Positions 9,898 through 19,899 of a DNA stretch of 64,000 nt are shown here, piece after piece. The first letter of the stretch is position 1. Each line of letters starts with the position of its first letter. The stretch comes from an uncultured bacterium (lineage in GTDB: Bacteria > Desulfobacterota > Deferrimicrobia > Deferrimicrobiales > Deferrimicrobiaceae). The translations under genes were made by a program, and so were the position numbers. The stretch is from the NCBI GenBank assembly GCA_963764045.1, contig CAVXQW010000007.1:173630-237629 (forward strand). The letters are read 5' to 3'. The notes below the pieces were generated by a model. The model was not told where the DNA came from and made no database searches. It was given only the letters and a program-made list of their open reading frames with translations.

Positions 9898-9931
9898 TTC
9901 ACCTATGCGTCGGACGTCCGGAAGGGACGGG

Positions 9932-10214
9932 ATGCAAATGATCCCGACGGGGATGGGGATGGGAGAGTCAACGGAATTCCATGGGGCGACGCGGGCCGAC
10001 GCAACGGGGGATCCGCACATCGCGGAAGGCCGGCGCGGCCCGACCTGGCGCGGATGGCTGCTCTCCATCCTCGTGGCGGTCATTCTGTCGGTGACGGCGA
10101 CCCTGCTTCTCGGCGGATACGAGGCGTTCCGGTCGGATCCGCGGGGCGGGGGCGGGCCACGCGGATCCGGAGCCGGAAGTCAGTTGCTGCCCGCCTTCGG
10201 AATCGGGAAAGTGA
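9932..10214 (+). CDS. Small single-TM hypothetical protein, probable CCPP C-terminus (needs one frameshift near 10190)
   Basis: RBS-like AAGGGACGG; TM segment WLLSILVAVILSVTATLLLGG; alternative frame ends TGC TGC CCG CCT TCG GAA TCG GGA AAG TGA. Confidence 0.5.
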
Positions 10215-10333
10215 GAGGAGTGCGTGGAATCCTTGGCATTGATAACCGTCATCCCATTGATTTCATGAATATATTTACGGTGCAACCCGGCAATCTTTTC
10301 TATCAAGAGAGGCTTGCAAGGAGGAGGAAGAGG

Positions 10334-11668
10334 ATGGTGAAGGATCGAACCGGCGGGCGGCGGGCGGTGACGATCCTTCTTCCGCTCCTTGTTGCCCTCG
10401 TCCTTGTCGGACCTTCCCTTCGTCGCTGCTGGCAGGGGAGCCCGCGACAGGGGACGGACGTTCTCCGTGACCTCGTCCGGGAATCCCTGGAGCGGAACCC
10501 CGAGCTCGCCGCTTTCCGGTCGACGGCGGAAGGTCTCGAACAGCGTGTTCTCCCCGCGGGCTCCCTGCCCGACCCGATGCTCCTCCTCTCCCTCTCGAAC
10601 GTCCCGGTGGATGATTTCTCCTTCAATAAGGCGGACATGACCTCGAAGGACATCGGGTTCACCCAGGCGATCCCGTTTCCCGGGAAGCTCTCCCTGAAGC
10701 AGGAGATCGCGCGGCTGTCGGCCGTCCAGGGATCGGACCGGGTGGAGAGCATGCGCAACCTGATCCGGTTCCGGGTCAAGCGGGACTTCTTCCTCCTGAT
10801 GGAGAACCGGGAAGTGACCCGCCTCACGGAGAAGAACAAGGCGCTCCTGGGGGAACTCCTGGAAGTAGCGAACTCCCGGTACTCGGTCGGGAAGACGCCC
10901 CAGCAGGACCTCTTCAAGGCCCAGGTGGAGATCTCCAGCCTGGGGAAGATGCTGATCGCCCTTCGGAAAAAGAGGGTGGAGCTCGTGGCGGATCTGAATA
11001 CCCTGCGCAACCGCCCGGTCACGGATCCGGTGGAACTGCCCGGTACCTTCGATTTGCCGGACATCCGGTACGACGAAGCACAGCTTCTGGAGATGGCGAA
11101 GACCTCGAATCCCGATCTTAAAAGGGAAGGGGACGCAATCCGTCAGAAAGAGACGGCGCTTGCGCTCGCGAGGAAGCAGATCCTGCCCGACTTCCAGATC
11201 GGCGGCGCCTACAAGGTGCGGGAGGACACCCCGACGGGCGGGGATCGGCCGGATTTCGTCAGCGCGACCGTCGGATTCACGCTCCCGCTCTGGCACGGGC
11301 GCAAGCAGGACAAGGAAGTGGAGGCGTCCGTGCGGGATCTCTCCTCGGAGAAGAGCAGCTACGAGAGCGCCTGGAACGCGATCCGGAACCGCCTCCAGGA
11401 GATCGCGGCGGACATCGCCGCGCAGCGTGAAACCCTCTCCCTGTTCGACACGGGCCTTCTCCCGCAGGCGAGGGAGTCCGTGAGCGCCTCCCGCTCCGCC
11501 TACGAGGTGGGGCAGGTCGAGTTCGCCTCCGTTCTCAACGGGCAGACTCTCCCTCTACCAGCAGGAGATCGAACGGGAACGGACCGCGGAAGCCTTCCGC
11601 ATCCGGGCCTCCGAGCTCGAGCTCGTCGTGGGGAAGGAACTTTTTTCCATGAAGGGAAACGGCGATGA
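10334..11668 (+). CDS. TolC-family outer membrane efflux protein (CusC-like); apparent frameshifts, end approximate
   Basis: ERNPELAA, LPDPML, QAIPFPGKL, RYSVG, TLPLWHGRKQ, AYEVG pattern; strong RBS GGAGGAGG upstream. Confidence 0.85.
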   Translation: MVKDRTGGRRAVTILLPLLVALVLVGPSLRRCWQGSPRQGTDVLRDLVRESLERNPELAAFRSTAEGLEQRVLPAGSLPDPMLLLSLSNVPVDDFSFNKADMTSKDIGFTQAIPFPGKLSLKQEIARLSAVQGSDRVESMRNLIRFRVKRDFFLLMENREVTRLTEKNKALLGELLEVANSRYSVGKTPQQDLFKAQVEISSLGKMLIALRKKRVELVADLNTLRNRPVTDPVELPGTFDLPDIRYDEAQLLEMAKTSNPDLKREGDAIRQKETALALARKQILPDFQIGGAYKVREDTPTGGDRPDFVSATVGFTLPLWHGRKQDKEVEASVRDLSSEKSSYESAWNAIRNRLQEIAADIAAQRETLSLFDTGLLPQARESVSASRSAYEVGQVEFASVLNGQTLPLPAGDRTGTDRGSLPHPGLRARARRGEGTFFHEGKRR

Positions 11669-13263
11669 ACGGTAGAAAGATCGTTCTCCAGATCCTCCTG
11701 GTCCTGGCGGCGGTGGCGCTCGGCGGGACAGGGATGTACGTCCTGATGAGCAGGGGCGGCGTATCCGCGATCCCGTGGCTGGCGAAGGGATCGACGTCGG
11801 AAGGGGTGAGCGTCCACAAGGACGCGGGGGAGAAGAAGCTGTACACCTGCCCGATGCACCCGTTCATCATCACCGACAAGCCCGGGACATGCCCTATTTG
11901 CGGGATGACCCTCGTCCCCGCGAAATCCGGTTCCGGACAGGCCCCGGCGGCGGCCGCTCCGGGTACCGGGGGCAAGGAACGGAAGATCAAGTACTGGGTG
12001 GCTCCGATGGACCCCAACTATCGCAGCGACAAGCCCGGGAAATCCCCCATGGGCATGGACCTGGTTCCCGTCTACGAGGATGAAGGAGAGGAGGCCGGAA
12101 CGGTCCGGGTCGACCCGAACACGATCCAGTCGATCGGGGTCCGGACGGCGCCGGTGACCGTGGGGGAACTCAAGAAGACGATCCGCACGGTGGGGCGGGT
12201 CGCCTACGACGAAAGCCGGATCGCATCGGTCAATTCGAAGGTGGCCGGCTGGATCGAAAAGCTCTACGTGGACACCACGGGGCAGGAAGTCCGGAAAGGA
12301 CAGCCGCTGATCGACATCTACTCCCCCGATCTCGTATCGGCGCAGCAGGAATACCTGATCGCACGGAAGCATTTCGAGGAGGTGAAGAACAGCCCGTTCC
12401 CGGACGTGGTGAGCAGCGCAAAGGAACTGCTCGCGTCCGCCGGGAAACGGCTGGACTACTGGGACATCAACGGGGCGCAGATCGAGAAACTTGAGAATAC
12501 CGGCGAGGTCCGGAAGACTCTCACCCTCTACTCCCCCTACCACGGCGTCGTGGTCTCCAAGGCGGTCTTCGACGGCACGAGGGTCATGCCGGGAATGGAG
12601 CTCTTCCGGATCGCGGACATCTCCCGCGTATGGGTGCAGGCGGACGTCTACGAATACGAGCTCCCGTGGGTGAAACAGGGAACTCCCGCCACGGTGACGC
12701 TGGATTACATCCCGGGAAGGAAGTTCCACGGAACCGTGTCGTACGTGTACCCCTACCTGGAGGGGAAGACGAGGACGGCGACCGCAAGGATCGAGCTGGT
12801 CAACCCCGGCGTCCTGCTCAAGCCCGACATGTACGCGCACGTGGAGCTGGCGCCGCGCGTGGCGGGAAAGACGGTCCTCATTCCGTCCGACGCGGTCATC
12901 CGTTCGGGCGTGCGCAACGTCGTGTTCCTCGCCAAGGGAGAAGGACGTTTCCAGCCCCGCGAGGTGCAGCTCGGGCTGGAAGGGGAGGAGGGGACGGTAC
13001 AGGTCCTTTCCGGCCTTTCCGGAAACGAGCGGATCGTGGTGTCGGCCCAGTTCCTCCTGGATTCGGAGAGCAACCTGAAGGAAGCCCTCAAGCAATTCCA
13101 GGGAGGGAGCGGGAACGGAACTCCCCCGCCTTCCCCGCCGTCTTCCCCGGCTCCTTCCCGAAGGGGGCGGGAGCGACGATGAAGGGGACGGATATGAAAG
13201 GCATGGACATGGGATCGCCCCGAAGGGGAGCGGGACCCCGGCAAACAGGGGACGGGGCGGTAG
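11665..13263 (+). CDS. cusB: CusB-family RND periplasmic adaptor with heavy-metal-binding domains and Met-rich tail (frameshifted tail)
   Basis: YTCPMHP..KPGTCPICGM, YWVAPMDP..SPMGMDLVP, IYSPDLVSAQQEYL, AQFLLDSES. Confidence 0.9.
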
Positions 13264-13266
13264 GGC

Positions 13267-16200
13267 GTGCTCGGAAGAATCATCGAAAAATCGGTCAAGA
13301 ACCGGTTCCTCGTCGTCCTGGCGATGTTTTTCCTGGCCGCGTGGGGAATCTGGGCGATGTACCGCATCCCGCTGGACGCGATCCCGGACCTCTCCGACGT
13401 CCAGGTCATCGTGTTCACGGAGTACCCTGGCCAAGGTCCTCGGATCGTGGAAGACCAGGTCACCTATCCGCTCACCACCGCGATGCTCGCCGTCCCGAAG
13501 GCGAAGGTGGTCCGCGGCTACTCCTTCTTCGGCTTTTCGTTCGTGTACATCATCTTCGAGGACGGCACCGACATCTATTGGGCGAGGAGCCGGGTCCTCG
13601 AATACCTGAACTACGTCTCCAAGCGCCTGCCCGCCGGGGTGACTCCCACCCTGGGGCCCGACGCGACCGGGGTCGGGCTGGGTGTACGAGTACGCCCTCG
13701 TGGACAAGACGGGGAAGCACGATCTCGCCCAGTTGCGGTCCCTCCAGGACTGGTTCCTCCGGTACGAGCTGACCGCCGTGGACGGGGTCTCCGAGGTCGC
13801 CTCCATCGGCGGGCTGGTGAAGCAGTACCAGGTGGTCGTCCACCCCGACCGGCTCGCCGCCTACGGGATCCCGATCCAGAAGGTCCGCATGGCGATCCAG
13901 CGCAGCAACAACGACGTGGGCGGACGACTCGTCGAGATGGGCGGAGACGGAGTTCATGGTCCGGGGTCTTGGATACATCAAATCCGTGGACGACCTGAGG
14001 GACATCCCCCTGGCGAGCGACCGGGGGACACCGGTTCTCCTGCGCGACGTGGCGGACGTGCGCCTCGGGCCCGAGCTGCGCCGGGGAATCGCCGATCTGA
14101 ACGGCGCAGGGGGACGTGGCCGGCGGCGTGGTCGTGATGCGCTATCGGGGAGAACGCGCTGCATACGATCCGGAACGTGAAGAAGAAGCTCGACGACCTG
14201 AAGGCGAGCCTTCCGGAAGGGGTGGAGATCGTCCCCACCTACGACCGGTCGGGCCTCATCGAGCGGGCGATCGAGACCCTGAAGGGGAAGCTCCTCGAGG
14301 AGTCCCTGGTCGTGGCGCTGGTCTGCGTCGTCTTCCTCCTTCACTTCCGGAGCGCTCTCGTGGCGATCCTGACGCTGCCGCTGGCGGTCCTCATGGCCTT
14401 CATCGTCATGTACTACCAGGGGCTCAACGCCAACATCATGTCGTTGAGCGGGATCGCGATCGCCATCGGCGCCATGGTGGACGCGGCGATCATCATGATC
14501 GAGAACATGCACAAGCACATGGAGCACGACACCGGGAACAGGAGCCACTGGGACCTCGTGGTCGACGCATCGAAAGAGGTGGGTCCCACCCTCTTCTACT
14601 CCCTGCTCGTGATCACGGTTTCCTTCCTGCCCGTGTTCACCCTGGAGGCGCAGGAAGGGCGGCTCTTCAAGCCCCTCGCCTTCACCAAGACCTACTCCAT
14701 GGCGGCCGCGGCCCTGCTCTCGATCACGATCGTCCCCGTCTGGATGGGCTTCTTCATCCGGGGGAAGATCCGGCCCGAGGAGAGGAATCCGATCAACCGG
14801 TTTCTCATCCGGATCTACCACCCCGTGCTCGACTGGGCGCTTAAGTATAAGAAATCGATCCTGATCGGGGCGGTCGCCCTGATCGCCGTCACTGCCTGGC
14901 CGGTGATGAAGATCGGCTCGGAGTTCATGCCTCCCCTGTACGAAGGGGATCTCCTCTACATGCCGACCACCCTTCCCGGGATCTCGATCACGAAGGCGAA
15001 GGAACTGCTCCAGCAGACCGACCGCATCATCCGCACCTTCCCCGAGGTGAAGACGGTCTTCGGGAAGATCGGACGGGCGGAGACGGCCACCGATCCGGCG
15101 CCCCTCACCATGCTCGAGACGACGATCACCCTGAAGCCGGAGAAGGAGTGGCGAAAGGGGATGACCCACGAGAAACTCGTGGAGGAGCTCGACGCGGCCA
15201 TCCGGTTCCCCGGCGTGACCAACGCCTGGACGATGCCCATCAAGACGCGCATCGACATGCTCGCCACGGGGATCAAGACGCCGGTGGGGATCAAGATCAT
15301 GGGGGACGATCTCGACACCCTCGTGAAGCTCGGAGAGCAGGTCGAGGCCGTCGTCTCCAAGGTCCCGGGCACCTTGTCGGCCTACGCCGAGCGGATCACG
15401 GGCGGGAACTACTTCGATTACGACATTCGGCGCAAGGAGGCGGCGCGGTACGGGCTCACCGTGGGCGACGTCCAGGACGTGATCTCGTCGGCCCTGGGCG
15501 GGATGAACGTGACCACCACCGTGGAGGGGCTGGAGCGGTACCCGGTGAACGTCCGGTACCCTGACGAACTGCGGGACAACATCGAGGCGATGCGGCGCAT
15601 CCTGGTCCCCACCCCCGGCGGGGCCCAGGTCCCGCTGGGACAACTCGCGGACATCACCATCCACAAGGGTCCGGCGATGGTCAAGAGCGAGAACGCGCGC
15701 CGGACGGTCTGGGTCTACGTGGACATCCGCGGAATCGACCTGGGGACCTACGTCAAGAACGCCCGGGAAGCGGTCCGGAAGAGCGTCAAGCTCCCCGCCG
15801 GCTACAGCCTGGTGTGGAGCGGCCAGTTCGAGTACATGGAGCGGGCGAGCAAGCGCATGATGGTCGTCATCCCCCTGACCCTGTTCATCGTGTTCCTGAT
15901 CATCTACATGAACACGAAGTCGTTGACGAAGACGTCCATCGTGCTTCTCGCGGTGCCGTTCTCCCTCGTGGGGGCCTTCTGGCTCATCTACCTTCTCGGC
16001 TACAACCTTTCGGTTGCGGTCTGGGTCGGGATCATCGCCCTCGCGGGCCTCGACGCCGAGACGGGCGTGGTCATGCTGCTGTATCTCGACGTGGCCTACG
16101 AGGGCATGAAGCGGAAGAAACTCATGAACACGATGGGGGATCTGAAGGAGGCGATCGTCGACGGGGCGGTGAAACGGATCCGCCCGAAGGTGATGACCGC

Positions 16201-16432
16201 TTCGGTCATCATCGCCGGCCTCCTCCCCATCATGTGGAGCACGGGGACCGGATCCGACGTGATGAAACGGATCGCGGCCCCGATGGTGGGGGGGGTGGTC
16301 ACCTCGGTCATCATGGAACTCCTCGTTTACCCGGTGATCTACGAGTTCCTGAAACAGAAAGGTCTGGACCGGTCCGAGGCGAGGACGTCCCTGGAGGCCA
16401 GGCCGGCCTCCCTGCCGGAGGATACCGAGTGA
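13267..16432 (+). CDS. cusA: CusA/CzcA-family heavy-metal (Cu/Ag) RND efflux pump; several apparent frameshifts at 13680-14170
   Basis: [68 protein letters not shown]. Confidence 0.93.
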
Positions 16433-16472
16433 TGGAGCAGACCGATAGGGCGTGGGCGAAGGGAGGGAGGAA

Positions 16473-17379
16473 ATGATGACGAGGAATCAAAGGGGCCTCT
16501 GTACGAAAGGGAGCGGTGGAATACCGGTTGCGGCCGTCGTCATCGCGATTTCTCTCGTCGCGCTTTCGGCGTGCACTGCACCTCCAGCGCCGTCGAAACC
16601 GGTGATCCACACGACGAAGGCATTCGACACCGTGTACGGAGAGCTTCCCCCCATCCCGGTGCAGAGCCCTGCCTACGCGACCGTCGTCTACTTCCCTGCG
16701 GCGAAGGCTCCCGGGCGATTCGTCACCGCCCCGATCTTCACCACGGAAGAGGCCAAGGTGGAATTCCTGACGGTCCGTACGGCAGTCCGCGGGATCGACC
16801 AGGAGGAGTTCAGAAAGGGGATCGCGCTTCCGTTTCCGGAAGGCTCGGACCTGATCTCCCTCGGACAGGAGCAGGGGAAGTCGATGATCCGGCTGGGCGG
16901 AACCTTCCGTGCGAATTCGATGTCGAAAAAAGAGAGAGAGAACGCCGCGTGCGTGCCTTTCTCTCACCTTGGAGCAGTTCGGGAAAGGGGCGTCGGTCGA
17001 CATCACCGATTCCAGGGGAGAGGTGGTTTTCAGCGGGGTGCCTGCAGCCTCGCAGGTGGCGGATCCGGGCAAGCCGCGGGTACTGGGGCTGCTGGCGGTT
17101 CAGGAGGAAAAGGGACGGCCGGCGACGGCATTGTCGGTGCTGTTCGACCGTCCGGTAGTCGTAGAGGAGATCGCCTTCTACCCACCGCACGGTGACGCCC
17201 CATACCCGGGAAAATCGTATGCCACCGGGTTCGGAATGAGCGTGGAATTCCACCCCGATCCGGGAATCCCCTTCGGGACGAAGGAGGCGTACCGGATCCG
17301 GTTCAAGGTGCGGGATGGCAAGGGAAGGACGACTGCCGGGGAGGAGCGGTGGGTCCCGAAGGAGATCGTCCGGTTATGA
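16473..17379 (+). CDS. Lipoprotein with GerMN-like domain plus C-terminal Ig-like domain (frameshift near 16950)
   Basis: Lipobox LSAC; VYFP...PEGSDL...LTLEQF...VDI GerMN-like pattern; beta-rich C-terminus in ORF 16909..17379. Confidence 0.6.
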
Positions 17380-17428
17380 AACCGGCAATTTCATTGCCGG
17401 TAACCCATAGGAAGAAAGGAGAAGTGTC

Positions 17429-18032
17429 ATGGGAATGAAACGGTTGGTCGCAGGTGCGGCGTTTCTGTCGATGCTCGCATTTCCGCTGATGGCTCAAACG
17501 GCGGACAACACCCAGGGAGGAATGCCCGGAACGATGATGCAAGGCCAGGGGATGCAAGGCCAAGGGATGCAAGGTCAAGGAATGATGCAGGGCCAGGGTA
17601 TGCAGGGCCAGGGTATGCAGGGCCAGGGCATGCAGGGGCAGGGCATGGTGCACGGCGGTAACGACATGATGAAGATGGGGACCCGGGTATACAGGGGGAA
17701 GATCGGGCAATGGCACAGCGAGGTCCGAATGATCGACATGAAGGCCCAGATGGCGGCCTCCGGGATGAAGGCGCAGGGGACCATGATGAATTCCCATCAC
17801 ATCGCCCTTCGCGCTGACCGACCCGAAAACGAAGGCGGCGGTCACCGAGGGGACCGGAACGGTCACGGTGATCGGGCCGGGCAAGAGCATGGCGACGTAC
17901 AACGTGACGGGCATGCAGGGGCACTTCGGCGCGGACATCAACCTGCCGAAACCCGGCAAGTACACATGCAACGTGAAACTGGAATCCGGGGGGAAGACCG
18001 GAACCGCTACCTTCCACTACACATTGAAGTAG
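17429..18032 (+). CDS. Secreted Met/Gln/Gly-rich protein with beta-sandwich-like C-domain (frameshift near 17808)
   Basis: Signal peptide (..FPLMA-Q), MQGQG repeats. The shifted frame gives LTDPKTKAAVTEGTGTVTVIGPGK...GMQGHFGADINLPKPGKY...ATFHYTLK*. Confidence 0.7.
17537..17644 (+). repeat. Coding 15-bp tandem repeat, 7 x MQGQG
   Basis: ATGCARGGNCARGGN units with synonymous variation and one inserted ATG. Confidence 0.9.
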
Positions 18033-18167
18033 GACGAACGAAACGGGAAGGGGGGCACGGGTCATCGTTCCGTTCCCCCCCCCGCATCAGTGGATGCGGC
18101 AGGAGCTCTACTCTAACCCGCACCGATGCCGGCGGAATCGTACCGGTCCAACACCGAAGGGGAGACA

Positions 18168-18705
18168 ATGGAAATCCGAACGATCGGGAAAGCGGTTCTT
18201 ACGGCGGTATGTGGTACGGCGTTGATGCTCATCGCCTTGCCGGGCATCTCTACGGGGGCGGAGCCCGGCGGGGCGTCCGGGATGAAGATGGAAGAGCACG
18301 GCGGAACGCCTGCGAAATCGGACGGTCAGAACGTGGACATGGGAGAAAACATTTTCTCCGGGAAGGTCGGCCCCTGGGCGGCGGAAGTCCGGCTGATCGA
18401 CATGAAGGCGCAGATGGATGAAGGCAGGGATGTCGGCCAAGACGACCGCCCGGTTCGCCGGCAAGCGCCACCTGATGCTGTTCCTCACCGATCCGAAGAC
18501 CGGGAAGCCCGCCGCGGGAGTGACGGGGAAGGTCGTCGTCACGGGGCCCGACAAGGCTTCCTCCTCGAAGCCCCCCTTCGTCATGATGGGCAATCACATC
18601 GGCGCGGACGTCGTCATGCGGACTCCGGGGACGTACACATTCAAGGCGGACGTCGTTTCAGGGTCGAAGAAAGGGAGCGCGACCTTTTCCTACCTGTTGA
18701 AGTGA
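18168..18705 (+). CDS. Secreted Met/His-containing protein, paralogue of 17429..18032 (frameshift near 18417)
   Basis: Shared motifs: GK(I/V)GxWxxEVRxIDMKAQM, H..LTDPKT, GP.K, M.(G/N)HxGAD, ATF.Y.LK*. Confidence 0.72.
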
Positions 18706-18721
18706 ACGGAGCGGAACAGGG

Positions 18722-19657
18722 TCACCCGGAGCCCTCACCGGAGGCTCCGGCCCGATTCTCCCTGCCGCCCAGCGTACCGATGCCCACTCCGAAGACCACG
18801 ATGCTCCCACCCGCCAGTTGGGATACCACCAGCGATTCGGATAGGATCAGCGCGGAGAGGAGGACGCCGAAGAGTGGCACGAGATTGACGAAGCCCGCGG
18901 CCCGGGAGGCGCCAAGCAGTTCCACCCCTTCGTACCACCAAACGAATCCGACGACGGTGCCGAGCAGGGCGAGCTGGAGGATTGCGATCCAGCCGTAGAT
19001 GGAGAGGCGGTGCAAACCCGTGGAAGCGAACCTTCCAGCGCGGCCGCCGGGAACAGCAGGACGGTTCCGATGAGGGACGCGTACGCCGTGGCCACGAGCG
19101 GCGGAAAGGTTCGCAGGACTTTTTTCCCCATGATGGTGTAGAGAGCCCAGGCGAGGGGCGCCCCGAGCATCAGCAGGTCTCCGGGGTTGAAGGAGAGGTT
19201 TCGGATCACCGCGATGGATCCGCGCGTGATCACCACTCCGACGCCGAGAAGTGCAAGAAGGAGACCTCCCGCCTGGACGGGACGGACGCGTTCCTTGAGC
19301 CACCAGGCCGAGAGGACGGCGGTGAGCAGGGGGTTGAACGCGACGATGAGCGAGCCGTTCGTGGCGCTGGTCCAGGAAAGCCCGGTGAGGAAGACGAAAT
19401 TGTAGAGGAACACGCCGGTGAGGCCGAGGGAAAACAGCCCCGCCCACTGGGCCCCGCCTTCCGGGAAGGGAAACCGATCGCTCCCGTCTGCGCCAGGCGA
19501 CGAGCGCCCAGAGGACGACCGATGCAATGGCGAACCGAAGAAATGCGACGAAGAAGGGGGGCGCCTCGCCGACGGCCCACTTCCCGGCGACGAACGTTCC
19601 TCCCCAGAAGAACGTGGTCATCACGAGCTTTATGTAAACAGCCCTCGTTCGTTGCAT
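18722..19657 (-). CDS. DMT/EamA-family transporter (two apparent frameshifts)
   Basis: TTFFWGGTFVAGK, LRFAIA, GSLIVAFNPLLT, GDLLML, NLVPLFGV. Confidence 0.87.
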   Translation of the reverse strand: MQRTRAVYIKLVMTTFFWGGTFVAGKWAVGEAPPFFVAFLRFAIASVVLWALVAWRRRERSVSLPGRRGPVGGAVFPRPHRRVPLQFRLPHRAFLDQRHERLAHRRVQPPAHRRPLGLVAQGTRPSRPGGRSPSCTSRRRSGDHARIHRGDPKPLLQPRRPADARGAPRLGSLHHHGEKSPANLSAARGHGVRVPHRNRPAVPGGRAGRFASTGLHRLSIYGWIAILQLALLGTVVGFVWWYEGVELLGASRAAGFVNLVPLFGVLLSALILSESLVVSQLAGGSIVVFGVGIGTLGGRENRAGASGEGSG

Positions 19658-19695
19658 AATCACAGTGTAGTCAATCAAACAGGAGGTGTCCCGAC

Positions 19696-19899
19696 ATGCC
19701 TTTCGTGAACATAAAGATCACCCGCGACGGCGTGACGCCGGAGAAAAAGGCGGAGGTGATCCGCGGCGTGACGAAGGTGCTCGTGGACGTGCTCGGGAAG
19801 AATCCCGCGACCACGATGGTGCTGATCGAAGAGGTCGAGACCGACAACTGGGGGGTCGCCGGGGAGACGGTCACGGTACGCAGAAAACAGGGGAAGTGA
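19696..19899 (+). CDS. 4-oxalocrotonate tautomerase family protein
   Basis: Pro-1 after Met, 67 aa, beta-alpha-beta pattern, NWGVAG; RBS AGGAGG. Confidence 0.88.
   Translation: MPFVNIKITRDGVTPEKKAEVIRGVTKVLVDVLGKNPATTMVLIEEVETDNWGVAGETVTVRRKQGK

Follow-up and report, generated by a model that had tools for sequence, protein, structure and literature searches.

Gram-negative bacteria export periplasmic Cu(I)/Ag(I) mainly through Cus-type pumps, and many cusCBA operons are without cusF. Which protein could act as the periplasmic partner of such a pump is the question raised by a stretch of 64,000 nucleotides (the window) from the genome of an uncultured bacterium of the Deferrimicrobiaceae (contig CAVXQW010000007.1, positions 173,630 to 237,629), where a cusCBA-type cluster is followed by two neighbouring genes, here called A and B, for secreted Met/His-rich proteins. 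We propose, with a probability of roughly 60%, that A and B are periplasmic Cu(I)/Ag(I) capture or delivery proteins of the adjacent CusCBA-type pump, analogues of CusF and of CrdA from Helicobacter pylori. An accessory role is proposed because the genes follow cusA, the proteins have Met/His-rich arms and a fold like that of copper proteins, and the pump is of the Cu(I)/Ag(I) type.

Two secreted Met/His-rich paralogues

Gene A (17429-18032, forward strand) and gene B (18169-18705, forward strand, starting MEIRTIGK) are each broken in the assembly by one extra base, a C at about 17805 in A (tcacatcg[C]ccttcgcg) and an A at about 18418 in B (gcagatgg[A]tgaaggca), as judged against the orthologues in genome G162 (locus L036), which has the closest intact cluster. 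With this base deleted, A encodes a protein of ~200 amino acids (aa) that reads ...NSHHIAFALTDPKTK..., equal in length to the NSHHLAFALTDPKTK of the G162 orthologue, while the ~178-aa product of B reads KAQMVKAGMSAKTT, for which the G162 orthologue has KAQMVKSGVSAKT. Both corrected proteins are colinear with their intact orthologues, each residue matching around the joins. The initial annotation, which had given these coordinates and this content with one indel per gene, is confirmed. Its remark that standard open reading frame (ORF) calling misses the genes is true of this error-rich assembly; elsewhere they are called intact as 'hypothetical protein'.

The two corrected proteins share one architecture, a signal peptide, a disordered Met-rich arm (about 14% Met and 10% His) and a C-terminal P19/FetP-like beta-sandwich domain of roughly 120 aa; the signal peptides, the Met-rich arms and a shared domain of this length had been read from the sequence at the outset. 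Their N-termini are Sec-signal-like, with a K/R n-region, a hydrophobic core and an AxA-like end, and by a crude rule (not SignalP) 223 of the 232 close relatives and 69 of the 71 distant relatives have an N-terminus of this kind. The arm of A consists of (MQGQG)n pentapeptides encoded by 7.3 copies of a 15-nt tandem repeat (17536-17647, forward strand), the copy number of which varies among homologues (P0121, P0122, P0129); B has a short Met/His arm. Gene A is 90% identical across the domain to intact P0121 (184 aa) and gene B 83% identical to intact P0001 (176 aa). The paralogy of A and B is borne out by 44.8% identity of their C-terminal domains across 116 aligned residues, and all the conserved motifs first noted are present in both: GQWHSEVRMIDMKAQM in A and GPWAAEVRLIDMKAQM in B, HH/RH....LTDPKT, MQGHFGAD and MGNHIGAD, and ATFHYTLK and ATFSYLLK.

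The genes are put well above chance by the number of their database homologues at E<=1e-3, 636 for B and 391 for A. Nearly all of these are full length at 165-190 aa, and nearly all are labelled 'hypothetical' and have no recorded Pfam domain. When 1.84 billion representatives were searched with a profile, 515 clusters (50% identity) came up at E<=1e-3, 166 of them at E<=1e-10. The named sources are Candidatus Deferrimicrobium and 'Deltaproteobacteria' metagenome-assembled genomes (MAGs). Within the genus there are typically two copies per genome, and two or three paralogues occur; a sister family has weaker single copies, and elsewhere in the phylum the family is rare. Pfam and NCBIfam gave only sub-threshold noise for the reconstructed A and B (DUF1842, PF10634, DUF6941, MxKDx repeat), a sequence profile search of the PDB gave chance matches only (GAPDH and others, E>=0.13), and literature searches returned no usable description of the family.

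Across the family, Met makes up 13-14% and His 10-11% of the arms on average, while a crude count over the long ORFs of this genome gives 1.1% and 3.6%; the arms vary in length, and MKMEGHGG repeats occur among them as well. In the domain, candidate metal ligands are conserved. Among 110 representatives of the wider family (P0001 numbering), His is kept at H99 in 104, at H98 in 92 and at H141 in 44, Met at M138 in 96 and at M81 in 78, and Asp at D76 in 87 and at D145 in 91. P125, G143, G152, Y154 and F171 are strongly conserved too, and the W68 position is W, Y or F in 56 of the 110. The conservation of Met and His that the initial annotation had made a touchstone is thus found, H99, H98 and M138 being near-invariant, with the exception of H141, which is kept in ~40% of the wider family.

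A sandwich resembling periplasmic copper proteins

AlphaFold2 models were built from alignments of 62-63 sequences. In the model of the intact, B-like P0001, a disordered N-terminus of 56 residues is followed by residues 57-176 at a predicted local distance difference test score (pLDDT) above 94, which form an eight-strand sandwich with a short, Met-rich helical insert. P0168, a 118-aa domain-only entry among the homologues from the A search, was modelled with a pLDDT of 91.5 and a predicted template modelling score (pTM) of 0.82. When this domain-only model was compared to the PDB by Foldseek, the top 18 matches were all Cu-binding FtrA/P19/FetP proteins (E 4e-5 to 6e-4; template modelling score by query, TMq, 0.67-0.73), and across the models the top 18-25 matches all came from the P19/FetP/FtrA group. 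Next in rank was H. pylori CrdA, both apo and Ag-bound (TMq 0.56-0.61; by target, TMt, 0.61-0.74), followed at lower ranks by further sandwiches linked to copper, namely PmoD, CopC (5icu, TMq 0.48) and a cbb3 assembly complex, and by generic immunoglobulin (Ig) and FN3 domains and filamin domains; the similarity to CrdA and CopC is moderate, and no CusF was among the matches. The early guess of an Ig-like beta-sandwich therefore stands, the nearest solved relatives being without exception periplasmic Cu-binding proteins (P19/FetP/FtrA, then CrdA). A YtkA- or CopC-like identity, suggested along with it, does not: the YtkA-like PF13115 (cut-off 25.9 bits) matched only below threshold in distant members (P0278, 22.8; P0285, 18.1; the member in G005, 14.7) and gave nothing for A or B, and CopC (PF04234) had no hidden Markov model (HMM) match in the family members searched.

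Since Ig-like sandwiches are common protein-protein modules, and FN3 and filamin domains do appear at the lower Foldseek ranks, A and B might be accessories of the tripartite pump that handle no metal, that is, periplasmic adaptors for assembly, anchoring or regulation whose Met/His richness is incidental. Synteny alone is firmly established, and both in the window and in G162 the genes adjoin a GerMN-like lipoprotein gene, as such a role would have it. The composition of the proteins speaks against it: in the arms of roughly 300 members Met is over-represented about ten-fold and His about three-fold, the conserved HH, M and D are classic soft-metal ligands, and the best structural neighbours are copper proteins, behind which generic Ig domains fall by two orders of magnitude in E-value. 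We consider a non-metal adaptor decidedly unlikely.

In sequence, the family was compared by hhalign to a P19 alignment (A2), made up of P19 members from the same phylum together with their relatives from the databases, and matched it with a probability of 77% and an E of 2e-5. The segment M138....H141-x-G-A-D-V...P-G-K-Y-T-F is paired with M-P-M-V-A-N-D-G-P-H-Y-G-D-N-V...G-K-Y-K of P19. We take the copper site of P19 to consist of His42, Met88 and His95 together with His132 of the partner subunit, and an acidic Fe/Mn site of Glu3, Glu44 and Asp92 to lie beside it. The positions paired with M138 and H141 are then presumably the copper ligands Met88 and His95, in agreement with the invariant columns of A2. 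Other P19 features are missing: the A2-invariant E25, E69, D71, D117 and H150, which cover the acidic iron site and the C-terminal GRH arm, have no counterpart in the family, and the four-residue stretch with Asp92 is a gap in the alignment. For the N-terminal half of the domain no confident solution was obtained with low mact, in global mode or among alternative alignments, and a low-confidence alignment places His42 beside W68. A pairing of H99 with His42, made by eye, was unsupported and dropped; the strand topology speaks against it.

With no iron site, no C-terminal His arm and the Asp92 loop deleted, the family would be a remote, re-modelled relative of the P19/FetP sandwich and not a member of PF10634, and as far as its sequences can tell it is probably a remote branch of that fold group. 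The 'new family' of the initial annotation is new in that neither Pfam nor NCBIfam has a model for it; the probable kinship found by hhalign makes it something other than an unrelated invention. It shares with P19, FetP, FtrA, HftA and Tp34 (PF10634, 'Iron_transport') secretion, a similar length (about 160-180 aa in that group), the Ig-like beta-sandwich and the M...H-x-G-x-(D/N)...G-K-Y segment that aligns with the copper-ligand segment of P19. It differs from them in scoring below the Pfam threshold, in being without the acidic Fe/Mn residues and the GRH arm (which bears the fourth copper ligand of P19, His132, across the dimer) and in its additions, namely the N-terminal Met/His arm, the Met-rich helical insert and the HH motif.

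This kinship brings in the possibility that A and B are P19/FetP-type proteins of metal uptake or iron redox chemistry, with copper-dependent Fe(II) binding or oxidation, and that they stand beside a pump by chance. The closest solved folds are those of P19/FetP/FtrA/HftA/Tp34, and the homologue P0212 carries the NCBI label 'iron transporter'. The lineage of the nearest named relatives is predicted to respire iron (PMC9386147). We nevertheless hold an iron function to be very unlikely. Besides the missing acidic residues, GRH arm and Asp92 loop, PF10634 is not matched at threshold, with no match at all in ten further family members or in the genome of the window, and the synteny is with efflux pumps; P19 proteins partner Ftr1/FetM iron permeases, whereas the family follows cusA and has an Ftr1/FetM-type permease in none of the neighbourhoods listed.

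The pump, the neighbourhood and CusF

In the window, A and B close a run of genes in the order small CC-motif protein, outer-membrane factor (OEP), CusB, CusA, lipoprotein, A and B, those from OEP to B on the forward strand. The OEP/CusC-like gene (10331-11668, start approximate) is frame-broken; it is followed by the cusB-type membrane fusion protein gene (11665-13182), the gene of the cusA-type permease of the heavy-metal efflux (HME) branch of resistance-nodulation-division (RND) pumps (13267-16432, with four single-base insertions) and the lipoprotein gene (16473-17379), which is frame-broken here and intact in G162 (about 300 aa). Downstream of B lie a convergent EamA gene and then genes for a tautomerase and a fumarase. 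No strong terminator was found inside this run, the operon interior has no convincing terminator or sigma-70 promoter, and the A-B intergenic stretch folds no better than shuffled sequence (z -0.53).

The association with the pump, claimed from the start, recurs well beyond the window. A family member directly follows OEP-CusB-CusA in 15 loci of the genus (the window, L001 and 13 more), at a distance of about 50-150 bp from cusA in L001 and the 13 further loci. Two types of pump are represented among these 15 loci, and the CusA of one is only about 50% identical to that of the other. In G162 the gene order is exactly that of the window with all genes intact; among the loci compared, only these two have the lipoprotein gene, the G162 orthologue of which has a weak, sub-threshold Germane/GerMN match (E 0.0019). 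In G005, from another family of the phylum, the order is CusA, a DUF2231 membrane protein and the family member. Four of six distant representatives (P0285, P0292, P0366, P0380) stand directly after OEP-CusB(HMBD)-CusA, where HMBD is a heavy-metal-binding domain; of the remaining two, one is at a contig edge and one elsewhere.

Several features of these neighbourhoods vary. Most other genomes of the genus have an opposite-strand cytochrome c'-like gene (C-terminal CxxCH) and a gene for a 93-aa secreted protein between the two paralogues (L001 8632-9658, with equivalents in L033-L037); neither occurs in the window. One or two small genes precede OEP in most loci of the genus (window 9956-10213; L001 1169-1731), one for a membrane protein of roughly 93 aa ending GGCCPP..GK, the other for a His-rich membrane protein of roughly 88 aa (SGHSHMSAMHGG); neither has a Pfam match, and both may be further metal-related members of the operon. 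The DUF2231 membrane protein of G005 (L051 10866-11483) has a C-terminal tail rich in His, Met and Asp, and in L054 a P-II-like gene takes the place of the DUF2231 gene between cusA and the family member. When positions 9900-19700 of the window were compared with L001, L035, L037, L043-L046 and L052, two different CusCBA clusters were found within the genus at one and the same site beside the conserved tautomerase and fumarase genes, which looks like the replacement of an island.

The pump itself is, from its residues, of the Cu(I)/Ag(I) type. Identity to E. coli CusA is 55-57% for the CusA of the window, in which the Met triad M573/M623/M672, the Met residues of the transmembrane region and the CusA-type motif of transmembrane helix 4 are all kept. 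CusB has an N-terminal Cys-type HMBD (YTCPMHP...CPICGM), and after it a three-Met segment that aligns with M49/M64/M66 of E. coli CusB. The Met triad of CusA and the three-Met site of CusB would therefore equip the pump to accept metal from a chaperone; in E. coli, CusF passes Cu(I) to the M49/M64/M66 site of CusB (review PMC7558416). With HMBD and three-Met site, the window CusB has two metal-binding modules in series, and one of the two pump types of the genus is without several of the transmembrane Met residues.

A and B resemble E. coli CusF (PF11604) in that they are small secreted proteins encoded inside a cusCBA operon, that their candidate ligands are His and Met together with a conserved aromatic residue (W68), and that the partner pump retains the three-Met acceptor site of CusB. 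They differ from it in fold (an eight-strand sandwich, against the OB-like five-strand barrel of CusF), in sequence (hmmscan of A and B gave no CusF match), in size, being roughly twice as large with a disordered Met-rich arm, and in gene position, after cusA instead of between cusC and cusB. No cusF had been seen in the cluster at first reading, and in fact nothing in this genome, which is 75% complete, matches the CusF domain at threshold. That A and B replace CusF was a further claim, and it stands only in part: CusF was not found here or, more widely, in 22 of the 29 genus genomes searched, yet all six of the CusF-bearing genomes searched for the family (the seventh, G181, was not searched) carry it. 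The two are thus not mutually exclusive and the family is not a strict CusF replacement. In two genomes of the genus, a CusF-domain gene (G169:C17:12409-12615 and G154:C141:19216-19428) shares its contig with the cus cluster and a family member, at a distance of a few kb, so both candidate chaperones can coexist in one locus region.

CrdA of H. pylori (PDB 9ll2 and 9ll4, apo and Ag-bound), the second-best structural family, is likewise a secreted Met-rich beta-sandwich beside an RND metal efflux pump; it is CopC-like, is encoded with crdB-czcBA and is needed for copper tolerance (PMC9182242). An MPGM-type motif, as in CopC, PcoC and CrdA, is found in some homologues (e.g. P0122), but only in the disordered arm. 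CrdA, which contains no His, uses the Met-rich loop MMxEMPGMxxMxEM for binding (PMC9182242), whereas our family has the conserved HH and M(..H) positions, a separate disordered arm and no CopC Pfam match.

From the genes, the family, the fold, the conserved residues, the synteny and the type of the pump we infer metal binding, the identity of the metal and its transfer to the pump, which could proceed as follows. Each protein would be exported by its Sec signal peptide, and its Met/His arm would collect periplasmic Cu(I)/Ag(I) with soft ligands. The metal would then move on to the conserved His/Met site of the sandwich, formed by the HH motif, the D-M motif and the M..H hairpin, and the loaded protein would give it to the N-terminal three-Met site of CusB or to the Met triad in the cleft of CusA for export. 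Taken furthest, this would make A and B members of a new family of periplasmic Cu(I)/Ag(I) metallochaperones that does the job of CusF for CusCBA pumps in lineages that are anaerobic and for the most part uncultured (Deferrimicrobia and 'Deltaproteobacteria' MAGs). The scaffold would be a sandwich of P19/FetP type from which the iron site was lost and to which a Met/His arm for capture and an HH site were added, and the metal may be relayed through two sites, from the arm to the sandwich and on to the Met triad of CusB. This fuller version we put forward tentatively, as somewhat less probable than its negation.

The arm can also be read another way. PcoE and SilE are sponges of Cu/Ag resistance clusters, rich in Met and His, partly disordered and multi-site. 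PcoE is described likewise in PMC9182242. A and B share with them the Met/His richness, the partial disorder, the multiple candidate sites and the setting in a Cu/Ag cluster, and could be periplasmic buffers in which arm and Met-rich helical insert soak up Cu(I)/Ag(I) and lower the free metal while the pump is being induced, with no docking or delivery to CusB or CusA. The repetitive, length-variable character of the disordered arms, the two or three paralogues per genome, the copies away from any pump and the co-occurrence with CusF in seven genomes are all in keeping with this. A well-folded, conserved domain of 120 aa with near-invariant HH, M and D, however, exceeds the needs of a sponge; PcoE and SilE have no folded beta-sandwich and no detected sequence similarity to the family, and the tight position after cusA across divergent pumps and lineages suggests a pump-specific partner. 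Pure buffering therefore appears rather improbable to us, although buffering and delivery are roles that sequence alone does not separate.

A number of observations weigh against a capture or delivery protein of P19/FetP descent that stands in for CusF. The sequence link to P19 is weak, the 77% applying to 27-34 columns, and PF10634 scores 14.8 bits (E 0.034) for A against a cut-off of 21, with no match for B. At H141, where the M..H motif has its second His, some 60% of the wider family carry Gly or a different residue, and the branch without this His reads M-x-M-x-x-G-F-G-A-D. By an argument from strand direction, W68, M138 and H141 may lie at one end of the sandwich and D76, M77, H98, H99 and the arm at the other, a placement that would suggest two sites. 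No RND pump adjoins P0321, the same-class member at L048, a solitary gene with an M48/M56 peptidase nearby, or second copies such as that of L040. Lastly, CusF is present alongside the family in seven of the 29 genus genomes, so the role of the family may differ from that of CusF. The proposal that A and B capture or deliver Cu(I)/Ag(I) for the pump keeps the probability given above with these points taken into account; an iron function and a non-metal adaptor role remain unlikely.

Frame breaks in the island and meaning of the family

Indels were tallied in a global alignment of 10300-18760 against the G162 cluster (a tally by blastn over a larger set of loci gave too much noise where the sequences diverge and was dropped). 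In well-aligned stretches, all nine indels of a length not divisible by three are insertions of 1-2 bases in the window, with no deletions; none lies in a long homopolymer, and four fall in cusA (about 13678, 13939, 14107 and 14144). The OEP gene is broken near 10427-10449 and 11547, the lipoprotein and EamA genes of the island are likewise split, and further downstream tblastn with the proteins of a relative located frame switches in a GIY-YIG gene (about 21741) and a PEGA gene (about 25680). The essential rpoB, elsewhere in this genome (G000:C17:150266-154334), is split between two frames as well. In 18 of 24 other genomes of the genus, by comparison, the family members occupy a single open frame over the full profile. 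We discarded programmed frameshifting as an explanation: the relatives are all single-frame, and like insertions break cusA, OEP and rpoB.

The breaks are unevenly spread, at a density of about 1.3 per kb in the cus island (10-19.7 kb) and about 0.2 per kb downstream, and this, which also counts against our proposal, could mean real decay of the island. A, B and the whole cus island would then be true pseudogenes, with genuine frameshift mutations in a decaying accessory island: about 13 breaks fall in 10.3-19.7 kb, against about 2 in the next 10 kb; they hit cusA (four times), OEP, the lipoprotein gene, A, B and EamA; and the genus shows variation at this site, where either of two pump types can occur. 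Natural gene decay usually favours deletions, however, and we favour assembly error because the insertion-only pattern fits long-read consensus error better. In the island, moreover, the premature stops arise only from the shifts themselves and there are no large deletions, rpoB is hit too, and an assembly of 2.73 Mb in 18 contigs with an estimated completeness of only 75% fits an indel-rich long-read MAG. As for the density, we read it as lower effective coverage of a strain-variable island, from which more errors are expected; two different pump types occupy the site in the genus. The breaks in A and B are thus probably assembly errors in genes that are intact in the organism, decay being an improbable reading, and the many single-base insertions mean that any ORF-based reading of this genome should allow for them. 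The broken ORFs of the window would be no biological feature, probably reflecting an indel-rich assembly.

What is new here is the undescribed family and the operon context in which a presumed copper-binding periplasmic sandwich is found; as a category, the system is not new. For the many cusCBA operons without cusF, the family, which counts about 500 clusters at 50% identity and is modelled in neither Pfam nor NCBIfam, is a testable candidate for the missing partner. The interest lies with specialists in metal homeostasis and in the improvement of annotation; in practice, a new domain model would become available for the annotation of metal-resistance loci in genomes from the environment. If the proposal is true, the copper sandwich of P19/FetP, known from iron uptake, would have been re-used in metal efflux.

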